Shown here piece after piece: positions 33,104 to 63,605 of a stretch of DNA of 64,000 bases. The stretch is from an uncultured Nitrososphaeraceae archaeon. GTDB taxonomy: Archaea > Thermoproteota > Nitrososphaeria > Nitrososphaerales > Nitrososphaeraceae. The stretch spans positions 576,001 through 640,000 of the forward strand of contig CAVZZA010000001.1 in NCBI GenBank assembly GCA_963779615.1, written 5' to 3'. The position numbers were made by a program, and so were the translations under genes. Each line of letters starts with the position of its first letter. Position 1 is the first letter of the stretch. The notes beneath the pieces are model-generated. The model was not told where the DNA came from. It saw only the letters and a program-made list of their open reading frames with translations, and ran no database searches.

Positions 33104-33772
33104 CTACTTGCAGGAGTGTTTGTCATGGTTTTCGAGTGTGTACAGTGCTGCCAATTTCGTGGCAAGTTCAGCCTTTATGTAGCTTGAATCGTCACCTCCA
33201 ATTATTACTATATCATCATTGAGTGGGTTTAATTTATTTACCAAAAGTTTTATGATTAGGGGCTCATTTTTTAGGGCGTCATAATCGGTATTGACTGTAA
33301 AGAATTTTTCATTTTCATATTTTAGTGTTGTAGCGCCTTTAACTCCCATTTTTATTGCGATATCTCTTTGTTCTATTCCAGAACTAATTTCCATTTTCAT
33401 CTGTCTCAATAAAACCGCGTGATTGAATTTGCCAATTGAAATTGAGCAGTGAGGCACACTTGTTTCAGAACCAATGTGCATGGATATTTTAGTTAAAAAT
33501 GATTTTCCTTTATCAGACATCCTTGTTCCATTGGTAGTTGTTATTATCATGTTTTCCGTTTTTAGGTGTTTTATCAATGTCTTGATCGAACCTTCTCCTA
33601 ATCCAAGTTCTTTGGACAGCAAACTTCTACTTACAGTTTTCTCATCTTCAATTAACTGTAATGCTTTAAACACATGTGCAGGATTAAAGGACAAAATCCT
33701 ACTGGGTGCATATCTGCTGGAAATGCTCTCGAGGGTTTTTACTAAAAGATGCACGATATTATGCCACTGCAA
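33104..33772 (-). CDS. Winged-HTH protein (DUF4443-like), putative regulator
   Basis: SRSLLSKELGLGEGSIKTLIKHL HTH and SGIEQRDIAIKMGVKGAT. Confidence 0.8.
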   Translation of the reverse strand: MQWHNIVHLLVKTLESISSRYAPSRILSFNPAHVFKALQLIEDEKTVSRSLLSKELGLGEGSIKTLIKHLKTENMIITTTNGTRMSDKGKSFLTKISMHIGSETSVPHCSISIGKFNHAVLLRQMKMEISSGIEQRDIAIKMGVKGATTLKYENEKFFTVNTDYDALKNEPLIIKLLVNKLNPLNDDIVIIGGDDSSYIKAELATKLAALYTLENHDKHSCK

Positions 33773-33893
33773 ATAAATTTATTTTTATCTTGATGCTTTT
33801 TATTTTTAGAATTATACAAAATTTTATTGCCCGAACACTTTTTGATTATGATGAAAAAATAAACTAAAATATAAAAGATGAGAACACGCAAAA

Positions 33894-34625
33894 TCAAATT
33901 GCGGTTTTTCTGGAAAGCTCATGAGGCCTAAACCTGTACCAAAGCAATCCAAATACAACACCAAGAACCACCCAAAATCCGACCATGGTTAGGCCGCTCG
34001 CGATTCTGAAAGAACTCACCAAGTCCATCGGTATGGTGATTTTGTCGGGGTTGGGTGGGAACAAAGCAAACGCACTGGACATTATCACGGCATAAACCAG
34101 TGGTATGGCTATGCGGATATGGCGTACACCCCTAAACCTGTAAAACAAAACCCCAAGACCCAGGGCAGATACTGCGGATACTGCCAAGAACCCAAGGTAC
34201 AGGCTTTCCCTTAGGTATATGGTGTCCGGGTTTCCAACAGCAGGCGGGTTTCCGGGATACTTGAGGAAAGGGATGACAAACAAAGCCAGGCAGATGACTA
34301 GTGACAGGAAAACCGCCCTCTTGATGTCGCCAGAAAAAGGGAGATAGCTTCTGCCAAAAACATAAACTATGCCAAGGAGGGAGCCAAACGCCATTCCCAA
34401 GATGGAGCCCGCAATGAAACTTCCGGACTTTTGCCATGTCCTGTATGAGTTTTGCTCATTGGTGTCCACACTTTCGCCTGCCGCAACAGCCTTGGAGGTT
34501 TCCAAACCTATGGCTTTGTCGATAAATGGCTCGACAACGATTAAGTTCATGCCGGCCAAAACCACACCAGATATGGCCCCGGAAACAAGAGAGATGAGAA
34601 CAAAGAGCAGCGATTTCAACATCAA
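33894..34625 (-). CDS. cbtA: CbtA-family cobalt transporter subunit
   Basis: VEPFIDKAI.LE, PFLKYPGNPPAVGNPDTI..R, FRIAS. Confidence 0.9.
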   Translation of the reverse strand: MMLKSLLFVLISLVSGAISGVVLAGMNLIVVEPFIDKAIGLETSKAVAAGESVDTNEQNSYRTWQKSGSFIAGSILGMAFGSLLGIVYVFGRSYLPFSGDIKRAVFLSLVICLALFVIPFLKYPGNPPAVGNPDTIYLRESLYLGFLAVSAVSALGLGVLFYRFRGVRHIRIAIPLVYAVIMSSAFALFPPNPDKITIPMDLVSSFRIASGLTMVGFWVVLGVVFGLLWYRFRPHELSRKTAI

Positions 34626-34674
34626 AATCTACTTTCGATTTCCGTTATTTGAAGAATAAGAATAAAGAAGAAGA

Positions 34675-34890
34675 TTAATGGCAAGGAAAGCCTGCTGCAT
34701 GCCTCATGTCATGAGTAATCTCATGCAAGTATTTCATATCAAATGCCTGATTGCCCTGAACGAGGCTGAAAATTTGCCCTTGATCATAACCTACCACAAA
34801 AATACCAAACACTACAATGGCTGCTAAAAAACCAATGGCCATTTTTGAATTATCATATGTGCTAACAAGGGTTTTATCAAAAGTTGACAT
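34675..34890 (-). CDS. cbtB: CbtB-family cobalt transporter subunit
   Basis: One TM plus the LHEITHDMRHAAGFPCH signature. Confidence 0.92.
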   Translation of the reverse strand: MSTFDKTLVSTYDNSKMAIGFLAAIVVFGIFVVGYDQGQIFSLVQGNQAFDMKYLHEITHDMRHAAGFPCH

Positions 34891-34938
34891 TAATTCAAAG
34901 TTTTTTGCACTGTATATAAATATTTGGATAGTTTATCC

Positions 34939-35117
34939 GGCTCTGTTCACTTAAGAAAAATTAATTGCCTTTTTTATTGTGAATATAGTAATTAAAAATA
35001 TTTGAAGAGAATTCGGGTTAAACTGTCCTTAATTTATTAAAATTGAATTTTTTGGATTTCAAAAACCATTTCATTTAGACAAATATAAAACAGGTAAATG
35101 CTTAAGTGAACAGAGCC
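34939..35117. mobile_element. 179-bp IS6-family MITE
   Basis: Perfect 17-bp TIR GGCTCTGTTCACTTAAG; 8-bp TSD GTTTATCC at 34931-34938 and 35118-35125; no transposase. Confidence 0.92.
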
Positions 35118-35198
35118 GTTTATCCAATCATACTATTTAAAATAGAAAAAACAATTGATCCGTAACATTGAAAAAAAACATGATCAGCATCACTAAAA

Positions 35199-35267
35199 AG
35201 ATAATAAAGGAGTGAATTATATGATGCCAACGTCATTTCCAGTGACTGATTCACTCCTTTATTATCT
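35199..35267. repeat. Perfect 19-bp inverted repeat AGATAATAAAGGAGTGAAT with 31-nt spacer
   Basis: Arms at 35199-35217 and 35249-35267; related copy at 41483-41547. Confidence 0.9.
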
Positions 35268-35371
35268 GAGTATTGATTCCAGATTATTTGCGATCCCAAT
35301 GAACTAGGCATATGCAGGATTGGTTTGTAAAGCTCATGCTTGATTTATTGAGTCTACAAAGAGCTATTTTA

Positions 35372-35419
35372 TAGACATGATTAGGTAAGCCTAACAAAAA
35401 TATAAACCTGATCATGATT
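35372..35419 (-). promoter_or_regulatory. 48-bp promoter/operator block (TATA + TTAGGCTTACCTAA + ATG), copy 1
   Basis: Exact inverted copy of 41334-41381; DtxR-like palindrome at 35381-35394. Confidence 0.6.
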
Positions 35420-35959
35420 TTCTATTGTTATAATAACAATATACTGTGGAGAAGACATTTGAAAAAATTGTTTTTAGATTACCTTCTCCTCGTGATTACA
35501 TCCTTATGATTAAAAGGAACAGTTCAACTAAAAACCGTTTTTTTATGTTGCTTTGTGTGGATGTATGTTAATAATAAAATAGATAGTTTCTGTACTCTTG
35601 ATTTCTTGCTTACAATTGAATTAATTAAAACAAATAACGCTGTACTTAATTACCGAAACCAAACTTTATTCAATTCAACCCTTTTTTAAGGATGAATCCA
35701 AATTCTCAAAGGTGGTTAGCATAGTAAAAGATTTTTCCTTTAACTATTCAAATTTGCAAAATCTAGTCTCAGGTATGGTGGTAAGGTTATATAGGAATTT
35801 GTTATCACCCTTCACAGGCTATTTTTAAGCATAAACATAAAAACAATAGGAGGAAGACACTTTTTTACCTTTTATTGGATTGAGATGGTGTAATTTCTTA
35901 TTGTGTTCTATAGTTGTACAATAATAAATATAAGTTTAAAATACTGAATTGTAGTAAAA

Positions 35960-37717
35960 TTGATGTTTTTCAACACATTCAAAATTTCGACAGCCTTTAT
36001 TATTACTGGTTTGACGATTTTCGGGATTAGTTACCTCCTTCCTGATGGTGCCTTTGGTGATACTGACAGCTCCCTGTTTGCTTATGCAACAACCAATTCC
36101 TCAGGCTCTCTGCAAAATCAGGCAGATGGCGGAAAATCAAGCAACAACAGTTCAGCATCCAATTTTAGCGAAGAGGCCATAATGCATAAAATACAGATGA
36201 TGAGCGCAAAAGAAAAACAATTCCTCTGTGGAAGCAAAACCCAAGGCTCTAGTTACTATGTAAGCGAATTCGTAACTCCTGTGCCATGCAACCATCCGGT
36301 TGGGTTAGTTGCAGACAAAGACAATAACATATGGATAGCGTCTGGTTGGAGTGGGAGTATATTGGTGTTTAATCCCCATTCAAACACCTTTATTAAAACC
36401 ATAAAAATACCCAATTGGCCTCAAAATCAAGGGGAACTTGGCTCAATGATTTGGGAAATGAAATTTGACAAAAATGGTGATTTATGGTTTACGGATGAAA
36501 AAACTAACTCCATATGGAAGTATTTTACCAAAGAGGGAAAGTTTGAAAACTATAAAATACTTGCCAAAGGGGGCTACCCATTATCATTTGTTTTTGACTC
36601 AAACAACAACATATATTTTACTCAGGTATTTGGAAAGAGACTTGGATTCCTTGACCCGTTAAAAGTAGAGAATAATACTACCAAAGGGATTTCGGAATTG
36701 GAGTTATCAAAACAACTAAAATTCGAAACCATGGGTCCAATCTCCAATGGATTTGGATTTACTGATAACACCAAGAATGGCAGTAAAAGCAACACGAATG
36801 AAACAATGTGGTTTTCAACAGTTAGTTTTCCGGTCGGTGGTCAGTTGATTAAATACGACATAACTGAGGGAACTCTTACCATTCATGACTTGACCCATAA
36901 ACACAGTGTCCCAATAAGTGTGGCAGAGGACGATAATGGAACTATCTGGACCAATGACCACGCATCAAGCCTCTTCCTGATGTTGGACCCCAAAACAGGT
37001 TACACAAAAGAATATGCAACCTCTTTCCCGTCAACAGCCAACACAACCACATTGCCCTACTACAACCAATACAGGGATGGAAAGATATGGTTCAACGAAC
37101 ACTATGGAAATGCGATTGCCTCCTATGACATAAAGAACAAAACACTTGTGGAATATCACATACCATCTAAAAATCCACTTTGGGCCAATTCATCAAATCC
37201 TCTCAAATTCACATTTGATAATGATGGTTCCGTATGGTTTACCGAATGGACAGAAAACAAGCTGGGTGTTATACCCAAGGAAAAAATCAACCAATTGCCT
37301 ATTTCGCTATCCACCTCAAAGGATAAGATGAGCATAGATAGCAAAAATGGTAAAGGAGACACAGTTGATGTTAGCATTTATAATAACAAATTGAACGGTA
37401 CTGGCACTAATGGAAACAACAGCAATGCATTTTTGGAAGGTGATGAACCAGGCAAGCCTGCCAACATCACTATGTTTGCAACTTCGTCGATATCCAAGAA
37501 TGGATCATTGTTGAACCTCACAGGTGATTTTGGCAAAGACCGCTTCTTGACAACTGATTTACCGGTATCTACTGCTGGACCTTATCAACCGCACAAAACT
37601 ACTTTAGAAATAAATCCAACCAAGGACATTGTCCCTGGAGATTACACACTGACAATCAGCGCCCGATACAATGATGACATCACTGTTTCAAAAATAATAG
37701 ATTTGGATATCCAATAG
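35960..37717 (+). CDS. Secreted Vgb (streptogramin lyase)-like beta-propeller with Ig-like tail
   Basis: Repeated D..G.[LIV]WF[TN]E blades; signal peptide; GDYTLTISA C-terminus. Confidence 0.85.
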   Translation: MMFFNTFKISTAFIITGLTIFGISYLLPDGAFGDTDSSLFAYATTNSSGSLQNQADGGKSSNNSSASNFSEEAIMHKIQMMSAKEKQFLCGSKTQGSSYYVSEFVTPVPCNHPVGLVADKDNNIWIASGWSGSILVFNPHSNTFIKTIKIPNWPQNQGELGSMIWEMKFDKNGDLWFTDEKTNSIWKYFTKEGKFENYKILAKGGYPLSFVFDSNNNIYFTQVFGKRLGFLDPLKVENNTTKGISELELSKQLKFETMGPISNGFGFTDNTKNGSKSNTNETMWFSTVSFPVGGQLIKYDITEGTLTIHDLTHKHSVPISVAEDDNGTIWTNDHASSLFLMLDPKTGYTKEYATSFPSTANTTTLPYYNQYRDGKIWFNEHYGNAIASYDIKNKTLVEYHIPSKNPLWANSSNPLKFTFDNDGSVWFTEWTENKLGVIPKEKINQLPISLSTSKDKMSIDSKNGKGDTVDVSIYNNKLNGTGTNGNNSNAFLEGDEPGKPANITMFATSSISKNGSLLNLTGDFGKDRFLTTDLPVSTAGPYQPHKTTLEINPTKDIVPGDYTLTISARYNDDITVSKIIDLDIQ

Positions 37718-38156: not shown

Positions 38157-38444
38157 TTACACTAATGAAATAGAATTGTTTTTATAACTTATGCTTACCT
38201 CATGAACCCATCGAGTGTAAAAAGACTCGTCCATCCCTTCTGCTCTCCTTATAATTTTTGTTTTCTTGATAATGCCAAGTTGTTCCAGTCCAGTCACTTT
38301 TCTATAGGTAGATGATGATGGCATGTCCAATAAAGTGGATATTTTTTGTATACTCAATTCTTTTCCATCCAGCAATTCAATTATTGTCAGGCTTGTTTCG
38401 TTGGAAAGAATAAGCAAAATATCCTTTGCGTATGAATTCGTCAA
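38157..38444 (-). CDS. Winged-HTH regulator (ArsR-like)
   Basis: LSIQKIS..LDMPSSSTYRKV..LEQLGII; ATGA overlap with the upstream gene. Confidence 0.8.
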   Translation of the reverse strand: MTNSYAKDILLILSNETSLTIIELLDGKELSIQKISTLLDMPSSSTYRKVTGLEQLGIIKKTKIIRRAEGMDESFYTRWVHEVSISYKNNSISLV

Positions 38445-38891: not shown

Positions 38892-39677
38892 ATGACATTA
38901 CCGAAAACTAACCTATCAAATACATTTTACTTAATAATGGCGATTACCACATTTACAATTCTTTTGCAATCCATGACATCTGTTAATGATATTGCATTTG
39001 CACAAGTAAGCAACCAACAGCCAAACATCAATGCCCAGAGTCTTTTCAACACCCAAGCAATGACATTGGGAAACAATGTGAAGAACCTTGTGATACTCAT
39101 ACCCAATGAGGGACACCATGGCCCCAATGAAGCCAGTGAAGCCAGGTTCCTGGAACCGTCATTTGTCCCTGCAAATGCGGTGATAAACACTGGAACCACA
39201 GTAGCATGGTATAATGGTGATTTCGGTCACGAACGTACGGTAAACGTAAAAGACGCAACCGGCAGCTCGGTTGTATTTAGCACCGGGGCAATAATAGACA
39301 ATCAGGCATCAAAAACATACACATTCAACACTCCCGGAACCTACAGTTATGAGGCAATTGGCGACGCGGGTTACATAATGAAGGGCACCATAACTGTCAA
39401 AAACATTCAATCCCCTGTAACCTCACCCGCTGCTGCTGGTGGAATAGACACAGTGGGGGTATTGATGGTTCCAACACAAGACTTAAACAAATACATGCAG
39501 GACATCAAGAATGCCGGTTTAACTGTCGACAGCGGGCATAACTTCAAAGACCTAAGGGGAGGTCAGAGCGGAACAGGAGACGTGCAGACACTCTTGGTGT
39601 GGGCCTCAGGCGGCAAGGATTTGAATACCGCGATTGCGCCCCTAAGCCAGCTATCGTTAACCTTACCATACAGTTAA
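38892..39677 (+). CDS. Secreted Cys-less cupredoxin-like protein (PNEGHH family), copy A
   Basis: FVP...TVAWYNGD..H, YTFNTPGTYSY..MKGTITV cupredoxin pattern; no Cys; ends LPYS. Confidence 0.8.
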   Translation: MTLPKTNLSNTFYLIMAITTFTILLQSMTSVNDIAFAQVSNQQPNINAQSLFNTQAMTLGNNVKNLVILIPNEGHHGPNEASEARFLEPSFVPANAVINTGTTVAWYNGDFGHERTVNVKDATGSSVVFSTGAIIDNQASKTYTFNTPGTYSYEAIGDAGYIMKGTITVKNIQSPVTSPAAAGGIDTVGVLMVPTQDLNKYMQDIKNAGLTVDSGHNFKDLRGGQSGTGDVQTLLVWASGGKDLNTAIAPLSQLSLTLPYS

Positions 39678-40115: not shown

Positions 40116-40139
40116 TGGGTAGCAGATACAGGTGGGCTC

Positions 40140-40553
40140 ACGATTTTAACAAACTCTGCCTTGTCCAAAACAATGTTTATTTCACTGATGGTTTGCTTGA
40201 TTTACTCCACTGGTGCGTTACCGTCTATCTGTGTCCTAGTTTTTCCATTAACAGTGATTATTCATGGTCTGACAACTCTTTGCCTATTGGCTGCTCAATG
40301 TGCTCAAAATTGTCCAAATAGGCTGCTGTTGCCCACTCTTCGGCCTTGGTCGAGTCATTGGTCGAGTATGATGCGATTACCTGATCAAGCAGTGATCTTA
40401 TGTTGATATTTGGCCTTGGGTGCTTTTTTCATCAGATGCTGTATTGTTTGCTTGGGCAAATGATGATGATGCAGTATTGCCTATCACTAAAGATATGGCG
40501 GCCACAACAATTGCGACAAATGCTTTGTTTCCTTGCTGAATGTTTGTAAGCAT
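40140..40553 (-). pseudogene. Internally deleted copy of the 62514-63605 gene
   Basis: 40160-40390 matches 62548-62780, and 40440-40553 matches the signal-peptide region 63484-63605. Confidence 0.85.
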
Positions 40554-41333
40554 TTTTTGAATTTTTTCTTCAACATTATTCAGCAATTATAAAAATGCGT
40601 TATAGAAAGAAGCATTGCGAACTTTGTTGAATTTCAGTTTTATTTAATTATTTTACTGGTTACTATCGGGGCATATATCTATTCCCAAGAAAGAGAATGT
40701 CAAATACCTCCTAAATTGAAATGTCGCTACCAGAACACTAAACAGTGTATGGTGGGCATCTATGGCATTAGAGAATATACTATCCTAACTATTTTATGGA
40801 AAGATCTGACAAAATCAACTTATGGATGAACATGGTAAAACAATTATACCTGAATGAATGGAACTTTGTTTTGCCATGTTATGCTGCTTATTGTAGGAGT
40901 CTTGGCCTTTGCCTTAAAGGATTCTCAGAAAAGTAATGCTTCCACAGATAGCTATAACCCGGATAACCCAAATGATTCGCCATTCTGTTTACCGTTGATT
41001 CCGATGCTGCAGATCAGTCAGACGATGGAGATTATCAGTCAGACGGTGACATACCATTCCCATAACGTATTTCCGCCTCTAAATATTAAAAAAATACTAT
41101 AAAAAATTTAATCCATTTCTTTTCCTTTTTAAAATACCAAAATGATTCACCATGTCAGGTTTTATAAATAAAATTGAATGTTTGTAAAAATTTGAGAAGA
41201 TCTTTCTTCAATTGCAGCCTTAAATTCAGGCGTTGCATTCAACTTTTATTGTAACGTCAACAGGAACAAGATCTTCTGGAGAAACAATTACCCTCCTACG
41301 ATCTTTATTTATGATGTTATTTTAACAACGGAG

Positions 41334-41381
41334 AATCATGATCAGGTTTATATTTTTGTTAGGCTTACCTAATCATGTCTA
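41334..41381 (+). promoter_or_regulatory. 48-bp promoter/operator block, copy 2
   Basis: TTTATAT at 41347, TTAGGCTTACCTAA at 41359-41372, ATG at 41375. Confidence 0.6.
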
Positions 41382-41624
41382 AAATAACAAACTAGACACA
41401 AAAAATAGGCGCAATCTAATACACATCAAATCCTGGGTAAGTCATAAACACTGGAACATAGTCAACTGGGACTCATATTCACGATAATAAAGGAGTAAAC
41501 GTTATTGGGGATGACATTGGCATTCTTACCATCACTCCTTTATTGTCTCTTTAATACTAATATCTATCGTTACTCAACGATAGATATTTTATTTTTTTTT
41601 CACTATATTTACGGATAAATGGAC

Positions 41625-44468: not shown

Positions 44469-45001
44469 GTCCCATTTTAACCTAAATTGACAGTGATGCA
44501 TTTCCGAATAAAAGGAGTAACATTAGCATATTTTGATAGTGTTTGCTCGTCATTGTTTTTATGCTTTTGAGTTTTTTTAATTTTTGGAATGTAGTCGTAG
44601 TGTTTGTTTTTGCATCCATAGATTTTTTATAATGGCTCGCATATTAAGTAATTTGGTACAAGTGACTAAACAACAGCAACAATTTATTGCAAACAATATA
44701 ATTTCATTTAGATGCTTGTACTATCATAAATCAGCATCAAACTGCATTCTTTATAGCAAACTGTTTGGTAATAAGGATTTATTATATTTAAGTAAAAATA
44801 TGAGAGAAATTTCCTTCGGTTCACGCAGCCAACATCCGAATTACAAATTTAATGACCTTTTATAGTACATTGAATGATAAAGTTTTAGTACACAAATTAA
44901 CCCTTCAATATTGGTGAACTAGGGCTATCTCTTTCCATAAAATTCTAATACGCGCAGAGATATTGAATACTGCATAGATTTTGTAGATTGGGGTTTGTTA
45001 T

Positions 45002-47586: not shown

Positions 47587-47892
47587 ATAAAATAAACTCG
47601 CTTACAGAACTTATCTTTCAGATCAATTGATCGCGCTTAAATTGAAATCAAACACCAATAAAATATATGAAGTTATGTTATATGGTATCTTCTTTTGATA
47701 TAAAAGAAAGGTATTCTTCATCCTTATTAGGATAAACAATATTTTTGAATCAATATCCTCTTTGCTATCATATTCTGATATTGGCCTTGTATGATAAATT
47801 TTTGTTGACTCATACCTTTAGAATAACCTAGTCAACAAAGCATAGCAGATCAAATGAGAATGATTTCACATACCCTTAGCATTGGCAATCAT

Positions 47893-48558: not shown

Positions 48559-48632
48559 ACAATCATATATTGTATGTTTTATATCTATAGTGACTTTCAA
48601 AAATAGTCTAAACTGATAGTAAATTGTGAAAT

Positions 48633-53393: not shown

Positions 53394-54714
53394 TTAGATA
53401 ATGAGATCCTGCAAGTGTGTTAAGCATCATAGAAACAGTTGCACAGAACTGAGCCCTCATTTACGCCATTTGTTTTGGCATATTCATATTTTACCTATGG
53501 CCCATTAATTTGCCATCTGGGGTAAATTTGCCAGCTGCATATACACCTTCGATTTTCATCAACTGACCTAAGTAAACAATGAAGTTTGTTTTTCTGTAAA
53601 GTATAAAGCATTCTTCATGCAATACTATCAATGCAGAGATAAAAATACAATTAGGTTTTAGGATATTCCTTATTCTAATTTATTAAGAATTCAATTTCAT
53701 ATAACAGACATGATAATGGTAAATGTTTATAAAAAAGGAGTAGTAGTTAATTATTGTTGAATCTTTCAATTTAGGGGTTGAAACGAAAGATTACTTTTGG
53801 GCACCAGGGGAATGTGATTCAAAAATGAATGAATGGATCCTAAATGTGGTTCCCAGTATTATGCATATTAAAAACAGTGCATATTTTGAGATTATTGTTT
53901 TTAATATTTGCTTAAACCATCTATAAAACAATAGGTTAATTGCATTAAATCTGCTTTGTCACATAACTGTGAAATTCGTCAATTTATAATATAGCACATA
54001 TCGGCACAATACGAATATCGATTATTCCCCTTGCGGAAATAAAACTAACACATCTAAAAAATACGAAAATTTGAGTTACGCAACAAATCACATTAAATCA
54101 TTAAATAATTAAATAAATAATCAATTATGTTCAACCTAAATGATTTCGGTTAGTTTATTCTAAGAATGTACCGATATCCTTTTTATTTAAAATATTGTAA
54201 AAGTATTTGCAGTTTGCAATAAAATGCAAAAGTGCTTGCCCAGCAATAGGATAGTGCGACATAAAGAACAACCAGCCTGCAAATGGACATATTCTGATGA
54301 GAAAATACTGTCATTGAAGGATGATTATAGATGATGCATCTTGCTAATGTACTCTATTAAAAAGGGCGTCATCTTCCTCCTTCAATGATTATCTAATAAC
54401 ATAATTACGAGAAGAAGTGATATTGATCTGTTTCAATAAAATAGTTATTCGTTTATATTATTTTCAATCCTAAATAGGGTATTTCAAGTAAGATTAAAAA
54501 TGAAGTGAGTAGTTTTTTAAAAACTCAATTAAATAAGGAGGACAGCTAACTCAAAAACAATAATTTTTTTCTTTCTTAGATGACCTTTTTAATTGTGTTT
54601 TTTAGCTTAAAGGATATCAAGTAATTTGAGATTATTCCAAATAAGTTACATACATATGTTTTTGGGAAAATAGTGCTTACAAAACTGTATAAAAAAATTA
54701 ATAAAAATAAAAAA

Positions 54715-55396
54715 CTATGGTGTTGTAAAGTCTATCTTTGGAAAGGTTATGCTTTCTATGTTTTCAGTGCACCCAAATGCTCCGGTCCAGGTACCCTTGT
54801 TAAACTTTGTTGTGGGACCTTCAGTTGATGTACAGAACACTGTTTTGTCTATGGGGATTTCGGCCACATCAAAGTAGTTTATTGTCCCGTATACTTTATA
54901 TCCGTAAATTCCCGGGCTTTGAATCTGCTTTGAGACATAGTGCCCTGGGTCACCAAACAATTCGCTTAGCTTCACATTCTTTTTGATTTCATCTGCCTGT
55001 GTGATGGAGGAGGCGGCATTAAAGCTGCTTATGCTCTTGAAGTAGTACTTGTCGATTGTCAAGTTGGCGCCCTTCAGCGGCAATTTTGTTGCGGCATCGC
55101 TTAGCAAAATCTCCACATCATGCTCTCCTGTGTGTACGCCTGGGACTACTCCATATGCTGGCTCATTCGGAGTGCCCTACAACCACACTTACGGGGTTTG
55201 CGTTCTTTTGATCAGGATCGCTGTTGTCTGGGTTTATTGTTGTTGATGCGTGTGGGAATGCATATGCTGTTCCTGAATATAGAGACAGTGTAGCAGTAGC
55301 AGCAAGTATTACAGCCATAACATAAAATCCAATGTTATTGGTTTTTAAATTCTCACTCTCACTTTTGGAGTTTTTAATCATTGATAAAAGTTGCAA
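54715..55396 (-). pseudogene. Secreted hypothetical protein split by a +1 frameshift at about 55168
   Basis: Removing one base gives VVVGHSNEPAYGVVPGVHTGEHDVEILLSD. Confidence 0.75.
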
Positions 55397-55518: not shown

Positions 55519-56184
55519 ATGAAACACAAATGCTTGGATCACTCCAATGCAAAAAAGATACTATTACCAACAATAAGTATTATAGCTATACTGAGCGTTA
55601 TTTGCGTATCATCATCGATGTCACCCAACCAGGCCTTTGCAAGCCACAGCTTTGAGCTTGGTGTGTCGGGAAGCAGCATACCTGACAACACCCACATTGC
55701 ATTGGGCGGCATAACGCTGGCCAAGGGCGAGATACTGCCACTCTATGACGCAAGCCCCAACTTTGTGGCGGGTCATTTTCTAGCCAAGGTGCCATGTGAC
55801 TCCAAAAAGGTTCCAAAGGTTACCGTGATAGCCGGGCACATTGATGAGCACCACGACACGACCCACGTTGACAAGGTGCCGCTGTACTACATTTCACACG
55901 CATCGGACCGCCTAAGCTGCACCTACCATGCCCATATCCCAGACCCATTAAATGGTGGCTCACCAAGAGTGACAGACATTGATTTTGTCAACCTCTCCTC
56001 CTCACCTATTGAATTCAACGGTGGGGATGCAGTGGACATCAACGTTCAAAGGTCACTTGGAAGCATAGTTTCACAGTCCTATGAGGGTGATACCAAACTG
56101 CCTAGCACCATAAAGCACGGGAACCCGGTATTTGACCTGAACGACAACAACCCAAACAATGATGGATTGGGGGCAGCAGATTAA
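55519..56184 (+). CDS. Secreted His/Cys-motif protein (LYD..GH..PC..CxYH family)
   Basis: Signal ending AFA; LYDA..AGH..KVPC, HIDEHH..H, CTYHAH, TDI..N. Confidence 0.8.
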   Translation: MKHKCLDHSNAKKILLPTISIIAILSVICVSSSMSPNQAFASHSFELGVSGSSIPDNTHIALGGITLAKGEILPLYDASPNFVAGHFLAKVPCDSKKVPKVTVIAGHIDEHHDTTHVDKVPLYYISHASDRLSCTYHAHIPDPLNGGSPRVTDIDFVNLSSSPIEFNGGDAVDINVQRSLGSIVSQSYEGDTKLPSTIKHGNPVFDLNDNNPNNDGLGAAD

Positions 56185-56648: not shown

Positions 56649-57290
56649 CTAAGAGGATGGTGTGGTGGTAGCACTAGATGTTTGGTTCATGGCAGCCATG
56701 TTGGTCATCTGACTAACTCCTCCTCCTCTCTCTTCAATTGTCATGCCGCCCTGGCTAGCAGGTGCTTGTGCTGGGTCTTTCATTATCTCGTTAATGCCTA
56801 CAATTGCAACGCTGTCCTGGGGGAATGTTATCTCTTTGTTGGATGGATTGTGCAATGCCAGGTCAGTTATCAGCCATCCATTTGGTCCCATCTCAGAGGC
56901 AAGGTCGGTATGGTACATGCAAGTGACACCGGTTATTGACATGTTGGCAACTGGATGTAACTCAAGTGGTCTCAAAAATGTCTGGTCTCCGGCTATTCCT
57001 CCAAGCACCTGCAATAATGGCTCTGATTTTTCATTGCATGGTATGTTGACCGATACATGTCCATCCATTATGTGAAAGCTGCCTGTGTCATAAAGGTGGA
57101 TGTGGGCTCCTGCTGAAACTGATTTGGATTCTAGCAACAGAGTGACCGAGTCCCTTGTAATTACATCTTCTGCCATTGTTTGATTTGTCCCCTGGGCTTG
57201 GGCGGAAACATTGAGCGCCGGGATAAAGGATGACGCAATAGTTGCCGCTAAAACTATAAATAAAAAGTATTTAGTATACATTAATGGCAT
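56649..57290 (-). CDS. Secreted His/Cys-motif protein (same family)
   Basis: HIHLYDT..HIMDGH..IPC..CMYH..ITDL..N. Confidence 0.8.
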   Translation of the reverse strand: MPLMYTKYFLFIVLAATIASSFIPALNVSAQAQGTNQTMAEDVITRDSVTLLLESKSVSAGAHIHLYDTGSFHIMDGHVSVNIPCNEKSEPLLQVLGGIAGDQTFLRPLELHPVANMSITGVTCMYHTDLASEMGPNGWLITDLALHNPSNKEITFPQDSVAIVGINEIMKDPAQAPASQGGMTIEERGGGVSQMTNMAAMNQTSSATTTPSS

Positions 57291-57457: not shown

Positions 57458-57765
57458 AATGTCTACAACGCAACCAAGGCGGCCGTGCGCTCTTTTGCGC
57501 CCACCTGAACGGCCGATCTAAAGCAGCGCAGGATACGCGTCAACGCCATCAGTCCCGACCCAATAGAAACACCAGGCTTTAATGGCCTGCTGGAGACTGA
57601 CGAGCAGAAGGAGCAAATTAGAAAGGGGCTTTTGTCCGCCGTGCCTATGGGCGGATGGGAAGTCCTGACGAAATAGCGAAAGCCGCCACATTCATAGCGT
57701 CAGACGACAGCAGTTTCATCACCGGCATTGAGCTGTTCGTCGATGGGGGCATGGCGCAGATCTAG
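57458..57765 (+). pseudogene. 3' fragment of a short-chain dehydrogenase/reductase
   Basis: [44 protein letters not shown]; internal stop and frameshift. Confidence 0.85.
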
Positions 57766-58714
57766 GCGACTTGGACCGCGGGTATTTGGCCCCGGCTACA
57801 GATAATAATCACTAGCGGTGAAAGTGACACACGAGCCAATGTCACCTGGATTGAAACAGACCGTCTTTCCAATGGGGTTTGCCTTTCCCAAGTTTTTGCA
57901 GCAGTAATGCAAATTCGCCACCGCATCGTCGGTGTCGTGCACTGCTGAAAGACCAGTCTAACAACTACAACTGTTCCATAGATCCATACCAGCGGTGGTA
58001 TGGTATATGCTTCCTCCATGGTGAGCGGGTATGCGCATGTCAAAAGCGCAAACATGCTGCGTCAGCCCCGGAAAGAGGCTATGTGAGTGGCAACAGAAAA
58101 CACACCCATCCCATCCTCAACGAATGGTTTTGGCAAATGCCCTGCCCTGTTCTCCTTATTGCGTTATATAAGCAATGTCAGCATAGATATACTTAAGGAT
58201 AATTCATTAAAGATTGGTGTATAAAAGTACACAACTCCCCCCTATACTTATATATAAACATTTTGGCAAGGGTTGGGTTCTCCTTTTTTTAAGTGGGCCG
58301 TGTCGCATAGAGGGATCCCCTGCTTTTCGGCCTCAGCGATGGTTACGGGCAACCCCAAAGCGGGTCATCCTCATCCAATGTGCCAAGGTGAAGGGTGTCT
58401 GTTCGCGTGGAAGGGGAGGGGATTGAGTCCATACACGATTGCTTTGGCATCCGAGGCCCATGCCTGGCGGGTGCTGTATGCAGCGGTCATCCAGAACCCA
58501 AACAGGCAGCAGCAGGAAATACCGTCATGCGCGTGCATGAGGAGGTTATGAGGAGGTTATGGTGACTGCATACATGAAACATGGACATGAGGAAAGTACA
58601 ATGCTGTTAGCAACAAATTGATGTAAGGAGGCAACAGTGCCATGCTGCTCCATCATGTTTTTAAGGGGTTTTTGAAGGTGGTTTTTCCTTTTGAGTGCTG
58701 CCCTAGCCACCGCC

Positions 58715-59995
58715 TCAACCCTTCACGTCAAAGACACCCATCCACCCAAGCTCCGAAAACTCATTCACATGCGAATGGAACATGTACCTGCCATCAAAGC
58801 CAAACTTAAACTCCATTACCCCCCTGTCCCCCTGTCCAAGGGTGACGATGTCGTTGAGGTATGACTCCTCTGTGGAGGTGCCACCGGGATAGTAGTTGAA
58901 CATGTTTCCGTGCATGTGAAAGGAGTTCACCGGGTCAAACTCCAGCATGTTGACCAGGTAAATGCGGTAGTCAACGCCCCTTTGCAGCGGAATGGGGTGG
59001 TCCATGTAGTCAAACGCCCTTCCGTTTACCGTGTAGACCTCATTGGTGTGCTCAAACTCCTGCGGCATGTAGTCTTCCCTCACCTCCTCGGGGGTTGGAA
59101 TCCTGCTTGGGCCGACACCCTCCTTTTCATAGTCCAGGTCATAGCCGTTCATCATCATCGCCATCTCAACCATGTGGGGCCTTGGCGTCTTTGGGTCGAT
59201 GATGAACATGCCATACAGGCCCTTGTTGATGTGCTGGTCAATTGGGGTTACGTGGCAGTGGTAGGGGTAAACGCCATGGGGCTGGGCAACAAACGTGTAG
59301 GTGTAGCTCTGCCCGGGCATTATCTGGCCCCCCGGCCCCTCCATCCCGTCCATGCTTGCCGGGTGGACGGAATGCGTATGCAGTGAGTGGGGGTGGCTGT
59401 TCTCCTTGCCGTTTATGACGTTTATCTTGACAACATCCCCCTCCGTGACCCTCATGGTTGGTCCGGGTATGGTGCCGTTGAAGGTCCAGGCGTTGTCAAA
59501 CGTCAAGCCATGGTTTGCGATGGGTATCGACTGGTTTTCCTTGACAACCAGGGTGAACTCCCTTGTCACCTGCTTTTCACCGCCAGGCAACGTGTCTGTT
59601 TTCACGTGGCCGCAGTTAAAGTAGGTGAGGTACTCTATGGATGTTGGCTGCTTGCCCGTGTCCTGGCTGCAGTTTTTCAGTTTGTCGTAATCCTGAACCG
59701 AGGGCGACTTGGGGCCAGCGCTGTCGGAGGGGGATGATGATGAGGAGGTGGTGGTGGTGGGGCCAGTGGTGGACTCATCGGCATCGCCAGGTGAGGAACT
59801 GCTGCCGCCATGGTCGTCTTCTGCCTCATCCGCAGAGGTGGGATCCAAAAAGCTTGAGGATGCCATTGTCCTGTACGGTGACAGCGACGGCAGCAGCAGC
59901 AGGCTTAAGACAGCCAGCAGCCCAAAAAGAAACCTGGCTGTGCGAAGCAACTTTAACATGTCAACACCACCCAAAAAGTGACCAGTCATTGTCAT
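58715..59995 (-). CDS. Two-domain multicopper oxidase with type-1 site in domain 1 (type C 2dMCO pattern)
   Basis: HSLHTH, YHCH..DQH..GL in domain 1; FHMHG, FHSH with no Cys in domain 2; signal peptide and Ser/Thr/Asp linker. Confidence 0.9.
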   Translation of the reverse strand: MTMTGHFLGGVDMLKLLRTARFLFGLLAVLSLLLLPSLSPYRTMASSSFLDPTSADEAEDDHGGSSSSPGDADESTTGPTTTTSSSSSPSDSAGPKSPSVQDYDKLKNCSQDTGKQPTSIEYLTYFNCGHVKTDTLPGGEKQVTREFTLVVKENQSIPIANHGLTFDNAWTFNGTIPGPTMRVTEGDVVKINVINGKENSHPHSLHTHSVHPASMDGMEGPGGQIMPGQSYTYTFVAQPHGVYPYHCHVTPIDQHINKGLYGMFIIDPKTPRPHMVEMAMMMNGYDLDYEKEGVGPSRIPTPEEVREDYMPQEFEHTNEVYTVNGRAFDYMDHPIPLQRGVDYRIYLVNMLEFDPVNSFHMHGNMFNYYPGGTSTEESYLNDIVTLGQGDRGVMEFKFGFDGRYMFHSHVNEFSELGWMGVFDVKG

Positions 59996-60843
59996 TTGTA
60001 TGGTAACGTTGGGGCTATCTCCTTCAGGGCGGAGATCACGTTCCCAACACCCATTTCAGGCCCGGCGGTCCACACAACCAATGTTTGCTCTGAGTCAGTT
60101 CCCCTTGCCAAACCGCGAACATCCTTGAAGGAGTACGTGCTGTCTATCGAAAATCCCCTGTCTTTGAACTGCGAAATGTATTCATCGGCCTTTTTTGTGG
60201 GGACCATGTAGATCCCCACCGTGTCTGCGTTGTTGGTGCTGCTCGCATTTGGTCCCATCAGCTTGCTTGGCTGATCTGTGACAACAATGTCCCCTCTCAT
60301 GACAAACCCCTTCTGTTCAGCCTCCTGATCTATTTCCGGACTGCTGTAGGCATAACTGCCCACCGCATTAAAGATGGCTGGATTTGATGCGGTGAACTCC
60401 GTAAGAACTCCGCTATCATAGGGACCAGGGCTAACGGAGTTTGGTGCTCCGCCATCCAGTAGAATCTTGTGCTCATGACTTACGTCACCACTAAACCACA
60501 TGACGCTAGTTCCTTTGTTTACAATGGCTTTCTGGGGCAGAAAGGACTGATCAATGAACCTGGCTTCTTTGGGCTCCCCATTGCCGTGATGAGCTTCATC
60601 AGGAATCAATATTACCAGGTTTTTGACATTGTTTCCAAGTACAGCCGTTTTTGTAAGATAGATACTTTTGGCGTCTATGTTTGGCTGTTGATTTTGTACG
60701 CTTTCATCTATCGCAAATACAGGAATACAGTTGTTACTCATCAAAAATAATCCGAAGGTTAAAACAGAGATGAATATTCCAGATAGAAAAATAAATTTAT
60801 TGGCAAAAAGGCCATTTAGATAATCTTTATCATACATTTTCAT
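59992..60843 (-). CDS. Secreted Cys-less cupredoxin-like protein (PDEAHH), copy C
   Basis: LGNNVKNLVILIPDEAHH, GDVSHEH, MRGDIVV, LPYK; ATGA overlap with the MCO. Confidence 0.82.
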   Translation of the reverse strand: MKMYDKDYLNGLFANKFIFLSGIFISVLTFGLFLMSNNCIPVFAIDESVQNQQPNIDAKSIYLTKTAVLGNNVKNLVILIPDEAHHGNGEPKEARFIDQSFLPQKAIVNKGTSVMWFSGDVSHEHKILLDGGAPNSVSPGPYDSGVLTEFTASNPAIFNAVGSYAYSSPEIDQEAEQKGFVMRGDIVVTDQPSKLMGPNASSTNNADTVGIYMVPTKKADEYISQFKDRGFSIDSTYSFKDVRGLARGTDSEQTLVVWTAGPEMGVGNVISALKEIAPTLPYK

Positions 60844-60862
60844 TTTTAGATTCTTAAATAGC

Positions 60863-60876
60863 TTAGGTCAGCCTAT
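60863..60876. promoter_or_regulatory. DtxR-like box TTAGGTCAGCCTAT between a TATA-like TTAATAAA and the copy C start
   Basis: 12/14 identical to TTAGGTAAGCCTAA at 35381. Confidence 0.55.
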
Positions 60877-61031
60877 TTATTAAGGTATTTTTATTAATAT
60901 TTGTTATTACTGAGTAGTAGTATACATAAACCTAAATTTGTTTGTAGGTGTGTATCATATAATAATTTATAAGAAAAAAATTTTGTATGTATCAGACGAA
61001 TATCGTCCATTGGTAAAGCTTTAGAATGAAC

Positions 61032-61722
61032 GGCCCTGTTAACTTAAGCGTTTAGCATTTCCTTGTTATGCATTGTCGCAACTAAGCTGAGCCAGTTTTT
61101 GATATGGATGAGATTGCAACCCTCTTTCTGCTGCAAGGAAAATAGTCGTCAAAGCATTCTGTCATATCCTTGACGCACTGCATTGTCCTTTCAACAATGC
61201 TTTTCTCCAAAGGGGAATGGATATGGTGATTTAGCTTCAGGAAACCGGCAAGCCTGCGGATACCAAGTTCCACCATCCGTTGAAACCGGATGCTTCCAAT
61301 GAATCCTAAAACAAACCTGCAACAAACCTGCAACAAACCTCTCTGCCACGAACATGTTTCTCTCTTTGGAGATTGACAGTGCGAGAGTCTACCTGTCTTT
61401 TGGCTCGATGGCGCCCCACAACCAGATGCATTCCGAATAGCCTTAATTGCCGTCTCGTCAACCATGAATTCAGAAATTCTCTTTCTCTTTGAGGATATCC
61501 TTTTGGGTCGATATTTCTGAATCCACTTCCAGATTGCAACGTGGCTTCTCTTTACAATGTGCAAAAAAGATAACGCTTTGGCTACATTTCTAGTCGACAA
61601 ACCAAGAAAGTACAAATACAAGCCATGGCCAATGTGTTCTGAAGGTATTCTGTTTCTTTTATTGCACTTATAGGAAATAAGGCATCTTCAAGCTATAGGA
61701 TTTTCGTTAAGTTAACAGGGCC
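61032..61722 (-). mobile_element. IS6-family insertion sequence with frameshifted transposase
   Basis: Perfect 16-bp TIR GGCCCTGTTAACTTAA; perfect 8-bp TSD GAATGAAC; LYFLGLS..SHVAIWKWIQKY..VDET..ERTMQ. Confidence 0.93.
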
Positions 61723-61779
61723 GAATGAACAAAAAGTATTCTGACATGTGTTGGTAAATCGACCATTAACTTTACAGTT

Positions 61780-62273
61780 ATGTAAACATGCAGATGCTCT
61801 CTCCATGTAAAATGTTTATGCTCGTTTTGCCTGCATGTTTTTCATTATAATCGCATGCCCAATCGGATACCACTTTACCTATCTCGCGTTCATTTGAAAG
61901 GTGGAGTTGTTAATAGATTGCCTGTGCATCCATAGCCACCTTACCTCTATCAGAGAGCCCGAGGTGATCTGGTCGGAAGAAATACAAATTGTATCCTTGG
62001 ATGGTATCTGGCTAAGGTTTGTTTTACTTTGTTTGATTTGTTTGATTTGTGTATAGATATGTTGTCAAGCACCAGAAATATCTGCTTGATGCTGTTGTCA
62101 TGCTTTTTGTTTACCCGTTTGATAAAATCTAAAAATTGTTCTCCTGTTTTCTTTTTGTATCCATGTGTCCACATTTTATTATCGGTGTGATCATAGACAC
62201 CAAACAAGTTTAGAATTCCATTTGTCTTTTGAGCCCTGTAAACCCTTTCAAACGCTGTCCTGGCAATAGTCAA
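61780..62273 (-). mobile_element. IS630-family transposase 3' relic
   Basis: NLFGVYD, FLVLDNISIH, FVFLPTRSP, then LIEVRW after a shift; ends not defined. Confidence 0.8.
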
Positions 62274-62513
62274 ACACCATGCAAAATGGGGATAGGATCA
62301 TCACAGCTATGAACATTTAAAGAAAAATAAAACAATGAACACTTGTGGTTTATGTAATTATGTAAATTGGTGTACTATCTCATGGTTACAGAAATTAATG
62401 GGTCTAAATTATACGTTGCAGTATTATAAGCCCATTTATCTTGTTTTAAAAAATACTGACTAATAAAAAAAATAAAAACCTATTAAAAAAAAATTAAATA
62501 AAGAATGTTGTTG

Positions 62514-63605
62514 TTAACTGCCTGAAACCCTTAACAAATTACCCGCCTTGTCTAAAACTGTGTTTATTTCACTAATGGTTTGCTTGATTTCCTCCACTGA
62601 TGCGTTACTGTCTATCTGTGTCCTTAGTTTTTCCCTTAACAGTGATTCTCCCTGGTCTGACAACTCTTTGCCTATTGGTTTTTCCAAATATTCAAAATTG
62701 TCCAAATAGGCTGTTGTTGCTAGTTCTTTGGCCTTTATTGAATCATTAGCTGAGTATGCTAATGTCACTTGATTAAGTAATGACCTTATATTAGAGATAT
62801 AATCCACAGAACTTTCATTAGTTGATGTTGGTGTATATGGAGTAGCAGATGATTTTGATAGTTCGGCATTAATTTCATTAATTATTGAATTTATTTCAGA
62901 TGGGTTTTTTTGCTGCTGAACAGAATTGGTTAAGTTGTTAAACAGTGTAGAAATTGTCTCCCTTTCATTTGCTATCGATTTTGTGTCGTTGAATATCTTG
63001 TGGGCCCTGTCCATAAATGCTGACCCGTCTTGGTACTCAAGTATTAGTGTGATTTTGCCATCCTTTACGCCCTCTTCATACTCCCCTTCTGACGTTGTCA
63101 GCAGATCCTGGATTACGGCGATATTGTGGTCTGTGCTGTTCAGTGTTGTTGCAGGTACGACAGTAGCTATGACTTTGTTTGACATGTCAACTGAACTCTG
63201 TGCCTGTTTGCTAAACTCTTCTTTTGTGCTGTTGTTAGGTCCTGTGGGTGATACTAGGTTTGATAATAAATAAAGGTCACTGGTGTACAACTCATTTAGT
63301 TTTGAATCAGTATTGTTTAATGGTATGGCTATAAGTGATAAAACCTCCTCTATTGGATGGCTTGTGTGATTATATGCCAATGTATTGTTGTCGATGTTTT
63401 TGTTGTATACTGCCTTTTCAATATGGCCTATTATCTGCTCGATGTTTGAATGAAACTTTACATACTCGGTTCCATTACCCTGGGTATTGTTTGCCTGGGC
63501 AAATGATGATTGTGATGGTGATATGGTATTGCATATCACTAAAGTTATGGCAGCCACAACAATTGCGATAAATGCCTTATTTCCTAATTGAATGTTTATA
63601 AGCAT
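62514..63605 (-). CDS. Secreted helical-bundle protein with GH/HTSHP..E, EYQDG and FTR1-associated-like AYLDNFEYLE motifs
   Basis: Signal ending SFAQ; His/Glu-rich amphipathic helices; no TM permease domain. Confidence 0.8.
   Translation of the reverse strand: MLINIQLGNKAFIAIVVAAITLVICNTISPSQSSFAQANNTQGNGTEYVKFHSNIEQIIGHIEKAVYNKNIDNNTLAYNHTSHPIEEVLSLIAIPLNNTDSKLNELYTSDLYLLSNLVSPTGPNNSTKEEFSKQAQSSVDMSNKVIATVVPATTLNSTDHNIAVIQDLLTTSEGEYEEGVKDGKITLILEYQDGSAFMDRAHKIFNDTKSIANERETISTLFNNLTNSVQQQKNPSEINSIINEINAELSKSSATPYTPTSTNESSVDYISNIRSLLNQVTLAYSANDSIKAKELATTAYLDNFEYLEKPIGKELSDQGESLLREKLRTQIDSNASVEEIKQTISEINTVLDKAGNLLRVSGS

Follow-up and report, generated by a model that had tools for sequence, protein, structure and literature searches.

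Introduction

How ammonia-oxidising archaea (AOA) acquire iron is an open question. For N. maritimus, PMC6776035 gives no known iron-specific transporter and a reductive pathway that is only inferred, and PMC9723733, which describes FTR/Fet3p in Nitrosococcus, notes FTR1 in marine AOA 'without the corresponding fet3p gene'. In the FtrABCD system of Brucella and Bordetella, FtrB is reported in PMC11966278 to be a Cys-less cupredoxin; it has a copper site of D-x-x-H type and can oxidise Fe(II) in vitro (sites D118/H121 and E84/E86/E93). The pairing of a multicopper oxidase (MCO) with a ZIP permease, MCO1-ZIP, is known from AOA (PMC7785015). Our literature search found no paper on an FTR1/MCO/DtxR system in soil AOA. 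Here we analyse a 30-kb stretch (positions 33104-63605) from an uncultured Nitrososphaeraceae archaeon, which carries a two-domain MCO, cupredoxin-like proteins, secreted helical proteins and DtxR-like operator boxes. The window, that is, the whole DNA analysed, is 64,000 nt long (C1:576001-640000) and belongs to a 3.17-Mb genome of five contigs (C1 to C5) with about 36% G+C. Because close homologues of the window proteins are labelled Candidatus Nitrosocosmicus or Nitrososphaeraceae by their sources, we read the host as a soil-type ammonia-oxidising archaeon.

A sequence-only reading had treated the stretch as a single island forming an extracellular Fe/Cu acquisition or redox module. On the sequence comparisons below, the genes are best explained as a toolkit for oxidase-dependent iron uptake, Fet3/Ftr1-like and controlled by an IdeR-type regulator, which rearrangement has scattered in this genome; in the zone itself, duplicated pieces of the toolkit have probably piled up along with a cobalt module unrelated to it and debris of mobile elements. 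Iron uptake by an oxidase and a permease under the control of a DtxR is a known design, of which this would be a variant.

In the proposed mechanism, the cupC-2dMCO bicistron would encode an extracellular ferroxidase, with the Cys-less cupredoxin, through its E-x-H, D-x-x-H-x-H and Met residues, as a copper- or iron-binding accessory. The FTR1 permease would import Fe(III), and its helical ectodomain and the free paralogue helix363 would bind and hand over iron via acidic D-x-x-E-x-x-E motifs. An IdeR-type DtxR would repress the promoters through TTAGG-N4-CCTAA when iron is sufficient. A fusion of glucose/sorbosone dehydrogenase (GSDH) to plastocyanin, helix235, the GH proteins and small pairs of winged helix-turn-helix (wHTH) and membrane proteins would be recurrent companions, and in this genome insertion and inversion would have separated the permease from the oxidase. 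We put forward only tentatively, as a possibility short of an even chance, the full version of this scheme: a four-part Nitrososphaeraceae importer of a type-C 2dMCO, an obligatory Cys-less cupredoxin, FTR1 with a new helical iron-binding ectodomain and helix363 as iron shuttle, all repressed by the IdeR-type DtxR via this operator. If true, AOA would have in it their first defined pathway of iron uptake and their first defined iron regulon. The comparison names concrete candidates: the oxidase and its cupredoxin partner, the permease with its new ectodomain, the secreted protein paralogous to that domain, and the operator together with its likely repressor. Several unnamed protein families emerge as testable parts, and cultured Nitrosocosmicus strains exist.

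The candidate toolkit pieces and companions in the stretch are as follows (box, the candidate operator TTAGG-N4-CCTAA).

58715-59995, minus strand: 2dMCO, two-domain MCO with Cu-oxidase_3 and Cu-oxidase_2 (Pfam)
59992-60843, minus strand: cupC (cup-family alignment), with a one-mismatch box at 60863-60876
62514-63605, minus strand: helix363, secreted helical protein with FTR1-ectodomain homology
40134-41620, minus strand: degenerate helix363 copy with its upstream region, box at 41359-41372 (nucleotide identity)
35194-35441, plus strand: repeated element of about 250 nt, box at 35381-35394 followed by a TATA-like run (seven aligned genomic copies)
38892-39677, plus strand: cupA (cup-family alignment), divergent from wHTH95-DUF7521
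43695-44501, minus strand: cupB, upstream of GSDH-plastocyanin (cup-family alignment)
50005-50313, plus strand: cup-family pseudogene fragment, matching cupC residues 158-264 with one TAA inside
50458-51165, plus strand: helix235, secreted helical protein, all-helical, no Pfam match
41878-43584, minus strand: GSDH-plastocyanin fusion, GSDH plus Copper-bind (Pfam)
38157-38444, minus strand: wHTH95, HTH_IclR type (Pfam scan), in a module copied at C3
38441-38713, minus strand: DUF7521 membrane protein, in the wHTH95 module
45002-45922, plus strand: HTH186, a double wHTH at 45002-45562, and the 119-aa membrane protein mem119 (Pfam)
55519-56184, plus strand: GH221 (paralogue alignment)
56649-57290, minus strand: GH213 (paralogue alignment)

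Comparison with described uptake systems

As in Fet3p/Ftr1p, an MCO gene lies beside an FTR1 gene with two RExxE motifs in loci of four relatives, and both products face outside. In contrast to the three-domain Fet3p, the oxidase here has two domains (type C); a gene for a Cys-less cupredoxin always precedes it, and the permease carries a helical ectodomain of about 520 aa. The adjacency itself is absent from the studied genome, in which oxidase and permease lie 45 kb apart. The sequence-only reading had correctly noted that the window holds neither an FTR1 nor a DtxR gene and had proposed looking elsewhere; both turned up on the contig of the window, FTR1 41 kb and DtxR 62 kb beyond its end.

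The likeness to FtrABCD lies in a cupredoxin fold without the type-1 Cys, with a conserved D-x-x-H and acidic residues that may correspond to those of FtrB, linked to an FTR1-family permease. The cup family differs in apparently deriving from plastocyanin/amicyanin-type domains, in its extra C-terminal alpha/beta domain and in being accompanied by a full MCO. The FtrB structure 8VUK was absent from the 14 cup profile hits up to E = 10 and from the top 50 Foldseek rows for cupC, and the Pfam tables of the loci scanned held neither P19 (FtrA) nor polyferredoxin (FtrD), with no dedicated search made for either. In EfeUOB, too, an FTR1-family permease is paired with a cupredoxin-containing protein outside the cytoplasm and with a metal-binding domain made of helices. 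Here, however, that domain is fused to the permease, and no M75/imelysin or DyP peroxidase match was found by Pfam or in fold searches of helix363; neither helix363 nor helix235 matched any Pfam family at E <= 0.01.

MCO1-ZIP also has a secreted MCO encoded beside a metal permease, but the MCO clade differs (46% identity), FTR1 takes the place of ZIP and the DtxR is of Met/Cys rather than Asp/Glu type. Bacterial DtxR/IdeR regulons are resembled in the consensus-like operator, in a tandem, presumably autoregulatory site at the repressor operon and in the iron permease and SufBD as predicted targets. They differ from the arrangement here, where a 14-bp core abuts an archaeal TATA box and sometimes lies within a repeated promoter module of about 65-250 nt.

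The cupC-2dMCO pair

Both MCO domains scored far above their cut-offs (PF07732, 81.4 bits against 21; PF07731, 75.8 bits against 20.4), and the closest solved structures were 3gdc and 7rab (E ~1e-73). Four HxH motifs and one HCH motif were invariant in 13 of 13 orthologues (H206/H208, H246-C247-H248, H360/H362, H407/H409). The HCH type-1 site lies in domain 1, and we read the protein as a type-C two-domain MCO; a clade-specific acidic insert at residues 289-316 is absent from 3gdc. The cupC stop overlaps the 2dMCO start as ATGA, indicating a bicistron.

This pairing is conserved. The 2dMCO query found matches at E <= 1e-60 in 23 of the 33 other genomes of the genus, and cupC lies directly upstream on the same strand in 15 of the 16 genus loci whose 2dMCO is at least 63% identical, the sixteenth being at a contig edge. 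The pair was also present in all four loci fetched from two other genera (g14, g20); two more distant MCOs (in G053 and G058, relatives being numbered with G and, where needed, their contig) lack it. FTR1 lies within 6 kb of the pair at G015, G007:C12, G046:C27 and G037:C75. The order in G015 is cupC-2dMCO-FTR1, and in G046:C27, from another genus, cupC, 2dMCO, an 88-aa gene and an FTR1 fusion share one strand. At G007:C12, cupB-like, HTH186, mem119, GSDH-plastocyanin, FTR1 fusion, cupA-like, cupC and 2dMCO genes all fall within 16 kb.

The studied genome has a second cupC-2dMCO copy at C5:203856-208449, with no box upstream; a gene for a CadD-like transporter (PF03596) comes next, and one for a Cache protein after another 1.4 kb. 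The island's cupC and 2dMCO are 81% and 76% identical to these copies (C5:204-206 kb).

Contigs from RNA libraries of three soil studies map to GH221, GH213, 2dMCO and cupC at 90-99% identity, and two of them bridge the cupC/2dMCO junction. This hints weakly at expression of the four genes, DNA carry-over being possible. The insertion sequence (IS) stretch at 60.9-62.3 kb was almost without such contigs, from which we draw no conclusion. Another explanation has the secreted MCOs, with their companions, modifying the cell coat or biofilm matrix, metal control being incidental. PMC12448741 places MCOs among the genes most strongly up-regulated when three AOA, one of them a Nitrosocosmicus species, form biofilms, and nearly all island products are secreted. 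That paper names MCO3/MCO4 types, whereas our 2dMCO could not be placed in the MCO1-4 scheme, and coat or matrix chemistry leaves the FTR1 adjacency and fusions and the DtxR-type boxes unexplained; we consider it improbable.

The 2dMCO gene is also unusual in composition. Its G+C is 0.55 and its G+C at third codon positions (GC3) 0.72, the second highest of 1881 open reading frames (ORFs) of at least 150 aa, for which the genome mean is 0.355 (sd 0.087); orthologues in five other genomes have GC3 of 0.27-0.33. GC3 is also raised (0.44-0.56) in several island genes (59992-60843, 38892-39677, 41878-43584, 55519-56184, 33894-34625), and the remaining ORFs at the top of the GC3 range are accessory genes present in multiple copies (NHL propellers, SDRs, His kinases, Mn catalase). 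Foreign origin or biased conversion among paralogues could each account for the 2dMCO shift. A high-G+C donor was considered and found unsupported: in other genera, the loci that contain the closest homologues have a G+C of 35-37%, and the lone genome of about 50% G+C sampled has a 60% homologue without cupC.

FTR1 permease and helical proteins

The sole FTR1 gene of the genome (C1:681071-683518, 815 aa) scored 72.9-73.5 bits for PF03239 (cut-off 25.3) and encodes REGLE at residue 542 and REGFE at 660. Two RE[GA]xE motifs, 118 residues apart, were found in all eight FTR1 proteins compared, and 28 of the 33 other genus genomes have FTR1, mostly as fusions of 810-1000 aa. Helix363 and the extracellular portion of the FTR1 fusion are 34% identical across 159 aa and have AYLDN[FY]E-x-x-E-x-P in common, so that we regard helix363 as homologous to the extracellular domain fused to FTR1. 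A helix363 profile gathered 753 cluster representatives, in which the domain is fused to FTR1 (the gene of this genome, P0261, P0347) or to a plastocyanin domain (P0256). The predicted helix363 model is all-helical (pLDDT 80) and gave nothing below 1e-3 in Foldseek.

At the nucleotide level helix363 is 89% identical to a copy at C1:683.8 kb, beside FTR1. The degenerate copy at 40134-41620 is 79-91% identical to pieces of the two helix363 genes, and its upstream region is 84% identical to C1:639879-640966. The second helical protein, helix235, has homologues of 35-38% identity in two settings: directly beside cupC-2dMCO in five genomes (G042, G004, G014, G032, G037), and beside a box and helix363 in five others (G009, G036, G016, G041, G005). 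An NHL propeller gene adjoins it in both. Both helical proteins named by the sequence-only reading are present.

DtxR regulator and candidate operator

The DtxR gene on contig C1 (C1:702294-702761) scored 70.1 bits for PF02742 (cut-off 27) and 49 bits for PF01325 (cut-off 26). Its product reads EMYLK and VCGIEHH, with Met and Cys where Mn-type relatives have D/E, and a second DtxR, on C3, reads MEDYLE and EGIEHH, an Asp/Glu signature. In the DtxR/MntR literature, Met/Cys at the primary metal site marks the iron type and Asp/Glu the manganese type; by this signature, the C1 protein is best read as IdeR-type.

Of three DtxR-like boxes predicted earlier, the two at 35381-35394 and 41359-41372 are perfect matches to the conserved 14-bp core TTAGG-N4-CCTAA and both lie inside the repeated element of about 250 nt. 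The third, 20 nt upstream of cupC, has one mismatch and directly adjoins a TATA-like run, about 27 nt ahead of the start codon. The operator matches the 19-bp IdeR consensus at 17 of 19 positions, and a search with that consensus gave two sites, each with two mismatches, where 0.21 would be expected. The relatives' loci, 547 kb picked solely by protein similarity, contain 16 boxes, compared with 2, 1 and 0 for three control patterns. Seven precede FTR1 genes (7 of the 10 examined), six form tandem pairs before wHTH-DtxR (in three of three relatives) and three are at cupC operons. The studied genome has 12 boxes (controls 4, 4 and 1), among them the tandem pair of the wHTH-DtxR operon and a single box at the promoter of FTR1. 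SufBD is preceded by a box in both complete relatives searched (G015, G032), in which a further 4 of 8 and 4 of 7 sites are at FTR1, DtxR or cupC promoters. A box also precedes helix363 orthologues in G009, G036, G016 and G038, and in G005 follows the helix235-like gene at a contig end. Of the proposed Fe/Cu module, what stands is the link to iron and DtxR: families beside FTR1 in relatives, the homology of helix363 to the FTR1 ectodomain, and boxes at FTR1, DtxR and SufBD. Copper may also have a part.

Copies of the repeated element lie at window 35194-35441 and 41315-41553, C1:640645-640894, 689389-689505, 692916-693036 and 695487-695734, and C4:91042-91288. In other genomes only its last 65 nt or so are conserved; this core occurs in 10 of the 33 other genus genomes, and forms the promoter region of helix363 orthologues. 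The element appears to behave like a portable iron-regulated promoter. We considered whether the boxes are solely the end of a mobile element, seven of them having flanks of about 250 nt in common, and rejected this because boxes free of such flanks sit at the FTR1, DtxR and SufBD promoters.

Three further observations concern the element and regulon. The element opens with a hairpin of 13-bp stem (AATAAAGGAGTGA ... TCACTCCTTTATT) and closes with box and TATA. An identical, perfectly palindromic box, TTAGGTGCACCTAA, lies in G015 and G032 at most about 330 nt from a conserved gene of about 120 aa, which may be a further regulon member (homologue at C1:46386-46736). The gene of about 120 aa that precedes DtxR behind the tandem boxes in three relatives (here C1:702817-703221) has wHTH95 as its best BLAST match, with 33% identity over 46 aa in G032, the only identity given; neither has a Pfam family over cut-off.

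Cupredoxin family and possible copper handling

The sequence-only reading had listed four Cys-less cupredoxins. Three intact ones were confirmed (cupA, cupB and cupC, mutually 27-43% identical), and the fourth proved to be a C-terminal fragment with an in-frame TAA. CupA has no Cys at all, and the single Cys of cupB (residue 4) and of cupC (residue 39) lies in the leader, so the mature proteins lack the type-1 His-Cys-His-Met ligand set. The position of the type-1 Cys aligns to Ser/Glu; His123/125 and Met182 are retained. Across 25 cup sequences P-x-E-x-H and D-x-x-H are invariant, among them E83 and D120-x-x-H123, and Met is nearly so. An AlphaFold2 model of cupC (pLDDT 78) shows a cupredoxin fold, for which Foldseek returned rusticyanin, plastocyanin and pseudoazurin (E 5e-6 to 3e-4), with an extra C-terminal beta-alpha-beta-beta-alpha domain that had no usable match in the ESM Atlas (best 0.85). 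The cup profile search reached amicyanin at E 6e-4.

The genes travel in small modules. wHTH95-DUF7521-cupA has a 92% nucleotide copy at C3:1133173-1134783 and is also grouped in G015 and G012; cupB is 82% identical to a copy at C3:4.9 kb, and a cup gene precedes GSDH-plastocyanin in G012 too.

These proteins could also be seen as extracellular copper carriers or chaperones loading or protecting the MCO and other cuproenzymes, with the MCO as a cuprous oxidase and the island serving copper acquisition or detoxification in a copper-dependent organism. The cup domain comes from type-1 copper proteins and keeps conserved His and Met, the neighbourhood includes a NosD-like protein and a P-type ATPase carrying a YHS domain, and the C5 cupC-2dMCO pair is followed by a CadD-like metal transporter. 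MCOs and copper genes also respond to copper limitation in N. viennensis (PMC7785015). However, the sole recurring permease partner is FTR1, with intact RExxE motifs, and the operator is common to FTR1, SufBD and the IdeR-type DtxR. The copper-limitation promoter motif in that paper differs in sequence from the box (the motif was not searched for here), and a copper-chaperone role toward a ferroxidase would fit iron uptake as well. We therefore think copper handling an unlikely explanation of the system.

Several observations nevertheless weigh against the iron-uptake reading. FTR1 is beside cupC-2dMCO in just four of 20 loci, and the C5 pair has the CadD-like transporter after it instead. The derivation of the cup family from plastocyanin/amicyanin-type domains and its His/Met-rich sites fit copper too. 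Helix363 (residues 258-363, VIA-align) gave generic four-helix bundles only, and the solved relatives closest by score to the C1 DtxR are the Mn-responsive SloR, ScaR and MntR. Genome-wide, boxes are not in excess in G015 and G032 (8 and 7, against 15 and 12 for a backwards control), and 7 of the 12 boxes in the studied genome belong to one repeated element and hence are not independent. With up to one mismatch allowed, a box precedes 4 of 17 cupC operons, the island's included, and is absent from the other 13, the C5 copy included. Under the same limit, none precedes the island's cupA, cupB, GH213, GH221 or helix235; in this genome none precedes SufBD, ferritin, the second helix363 copy or the core-locus MCO.

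Genome context of the stretch

The remaining features of the stretch are given below.

33104-33772, minus strand: DUF4443/HTH regulator, partner of cbtBA (PF14544, 85.5 bits)
33894-34625, minus strand: CbtA (PF09490/PF09489 pair over cut-off)
34675-34890, minus strand: CbtB (same Pfam pair)
33889-34942, minus strand: cbtB-cbtA pair as arm of a 1054-nt inverted repeat, 95.2% identical, inverted, to C1:641119-642154
35960-37717, plus strand: 585-aa secreted beta-propeller, Vgb-lyase-like (PF24684, 79 bits)
47878-48569, strand not assigned: remnant of a multi-copy IS family (more than 40 genomic copies, 65-74% identity)
48633-49139, minus strand: 168-aa secreted protein, no Pfam or NCBIfam match
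51964-53393, plus strand: extracellular dCache_1 protein, frameshifted (PF02743, 64 bits; domain ORF 52236-53393)
57460-58668: 1.2-kb G+C-rich repeat starting with the end of a broken SDR gene (about 10 copies, 74-90% identity)
61020-62273, minus strand: IS remnants, a multi-copy family and a DDE_3 fragment (Pfam and nucleotide search)

Pfam confirmed the 2dMCO, the GSDH-plastocyanin fusion, cbtBA and three HTH regulators where the sequence-only reading had placed them. It had also stated that most intact genes encode signal peptides; judging N-termini by eye, we saw a hydrophobic leader in 13 of about 20. No island protein exceeded an NCBIfam cut-off, and the only Rfam matches above the gathering threshold in the window were two tRNAs, both outside the island, with no riboswitch seen upstream of cbtBA.

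We compared the region with the complete relatives G015 and G012 and with G007. C1:580-608 kb is collinear with G015:430-469 kb, and C1:648.7-706.4 kb is the inverted image of G015:469-513 kb. The roughly 40 kb between (C1:608-648.7 kb) have no counterpart at that position in the three relatives. The 30-kb stretch thus appears to be part of a species-specific accretion zone of about 40 kb at an inversion breakpoint. G015, G012 and G007:C24 have a conserved locus there, with an MCO (~400 aa) followed, not immediately, by an FTR1 fusion (~820-940 aa), 224-aa and 385-aa genes, GSDH-plastocyanin, a wHTH (~120 aa) and DtxR. In the studied genome the breakpoint splits it: the MCO is at window 24910-26022, and GSDH-plastocyanin, wHTH and DtxR remain at C1:702-705 kb. 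The FTR1 gene lies inside a separate 12.7-kb insertion (C1:680.7-693.4 kb) with a helix363 copy (86.5% protein identity) and IS fragments.

The zone itself consists of IS remnants, pseudogenes and recently duplicated segments whose copies elsewhere are 82-95% identical in nucleotides; at least four genes inside the 30 kb are broken. Counted in a BLAST table, 12 of the 44 genomic members of the island families lie within these 30.5 kb (1% of the genome), a figure that is descriptive only, the groups having been defined post hoc.

That density of related secreted families, together with three wHTH genes and three boxes, is what speaks for the earlier claim that all 30 kb form one co-regulated system with three local regulators. 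Yet the region is absent from that position in three relatives, it is a mosaic of duplicates, IS remnants and broken genes, in G015 and G012 its modules are hundreds of kb from each other, most genes have no box, and cbtBA with its regulator forms a separate unit elsewhere in relatives. Synteny largely refutes the single-system claim, which we hold to be very improbable. Small modules do recur across Nitrososphaeraceae, but the whole stretch does not. We read the striking 30-kb island as a by-product of duplication and rearrangement, not a functional unit.

Both ends of contig C3 (C3:639-5391 and C3:1194866-1203549) bear island-like pieces, cup fragments and a helix235-like gene, and hold copies of window 32409-32854 and 54113-54761. 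A second island-like region may have been broken by assembly there.

Neighbouring modules and remnants

CbtA and CbtB are encoded by adjacent genes (161.3 and 40.9 bits), and the DUF4443 regulator is their divergent neighbour in four of five relatives searched. The three appear to form a separate conserved module, found elsewhere in those four genomes.

The GSDH fusion scored 149.2 bits for PF07995 (cut-off 25) and 32.9 bits for its C-terminal Copper-bind domain, which retains C-x-x-H-x-x-x-x-M. By domain it would be a glucose/sorbosone dehydrogenase dependent on pyrroloquinoline quinone, use of that cofactor being predicted, and its gene is 95% nucleotide-identical to C5:810675-812358. HTH186-mem119 recurs near the FTR1 fusion, cupA-like and GSDH-plastocyanin genes (G007:C12, G031:C4, G038:C172). 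The 168-aa protein has a 50% homologue 3 kb from cupC-2dMCO in G007:C28. For the beta-propeller, BLAST and synteny in relatives revealed no conserved partner.

The Cache protein with clustered His residues described earlier does have a dCache_1 domain, but its gene is frameshifted: a signal-peptide ORF (51964-52170) is in another frame, and homology to paralogues begins at 52116. Cache paralogues adjoin MCOs at C5:207550 and C3:657883, and they accompany MCOs at three places in this genome. At C3:657883-662539 lie a Cache gene, an MCO (400 aa), a ZIP permease (below the Pfam cut-off) and an Asp/Glu (Mn-type) DtxR-family regulator, that is, the MCO1-ZIP pair of AOA with an apparent Mn-type regulator and a Cache partner.

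The two secreted GH/CxYH proteins noted earlier, GH221 and GH213, are present; they are paralogues and have invariant LY, G, PC and C.Y. The family has 36 homologues, all unnamed and from Nitrososphaeraceae sources, and GH213 gave no usable match in the ESM Atlas. In the 1.2-kb repeat, the opening 370 nt correspond to the 3' third of an SDR gene, with a frameshift, and the rest is without recognised content. A gene for a secreted protein seems to have been broken at window 54715-55396, where an ORF of 77 aa with a signal peptide and an adjacent one of 133 aa follow each other on the minus strand, and window 54113-54761 has an 81% nucleotide copy at C3:1194866-1195491.

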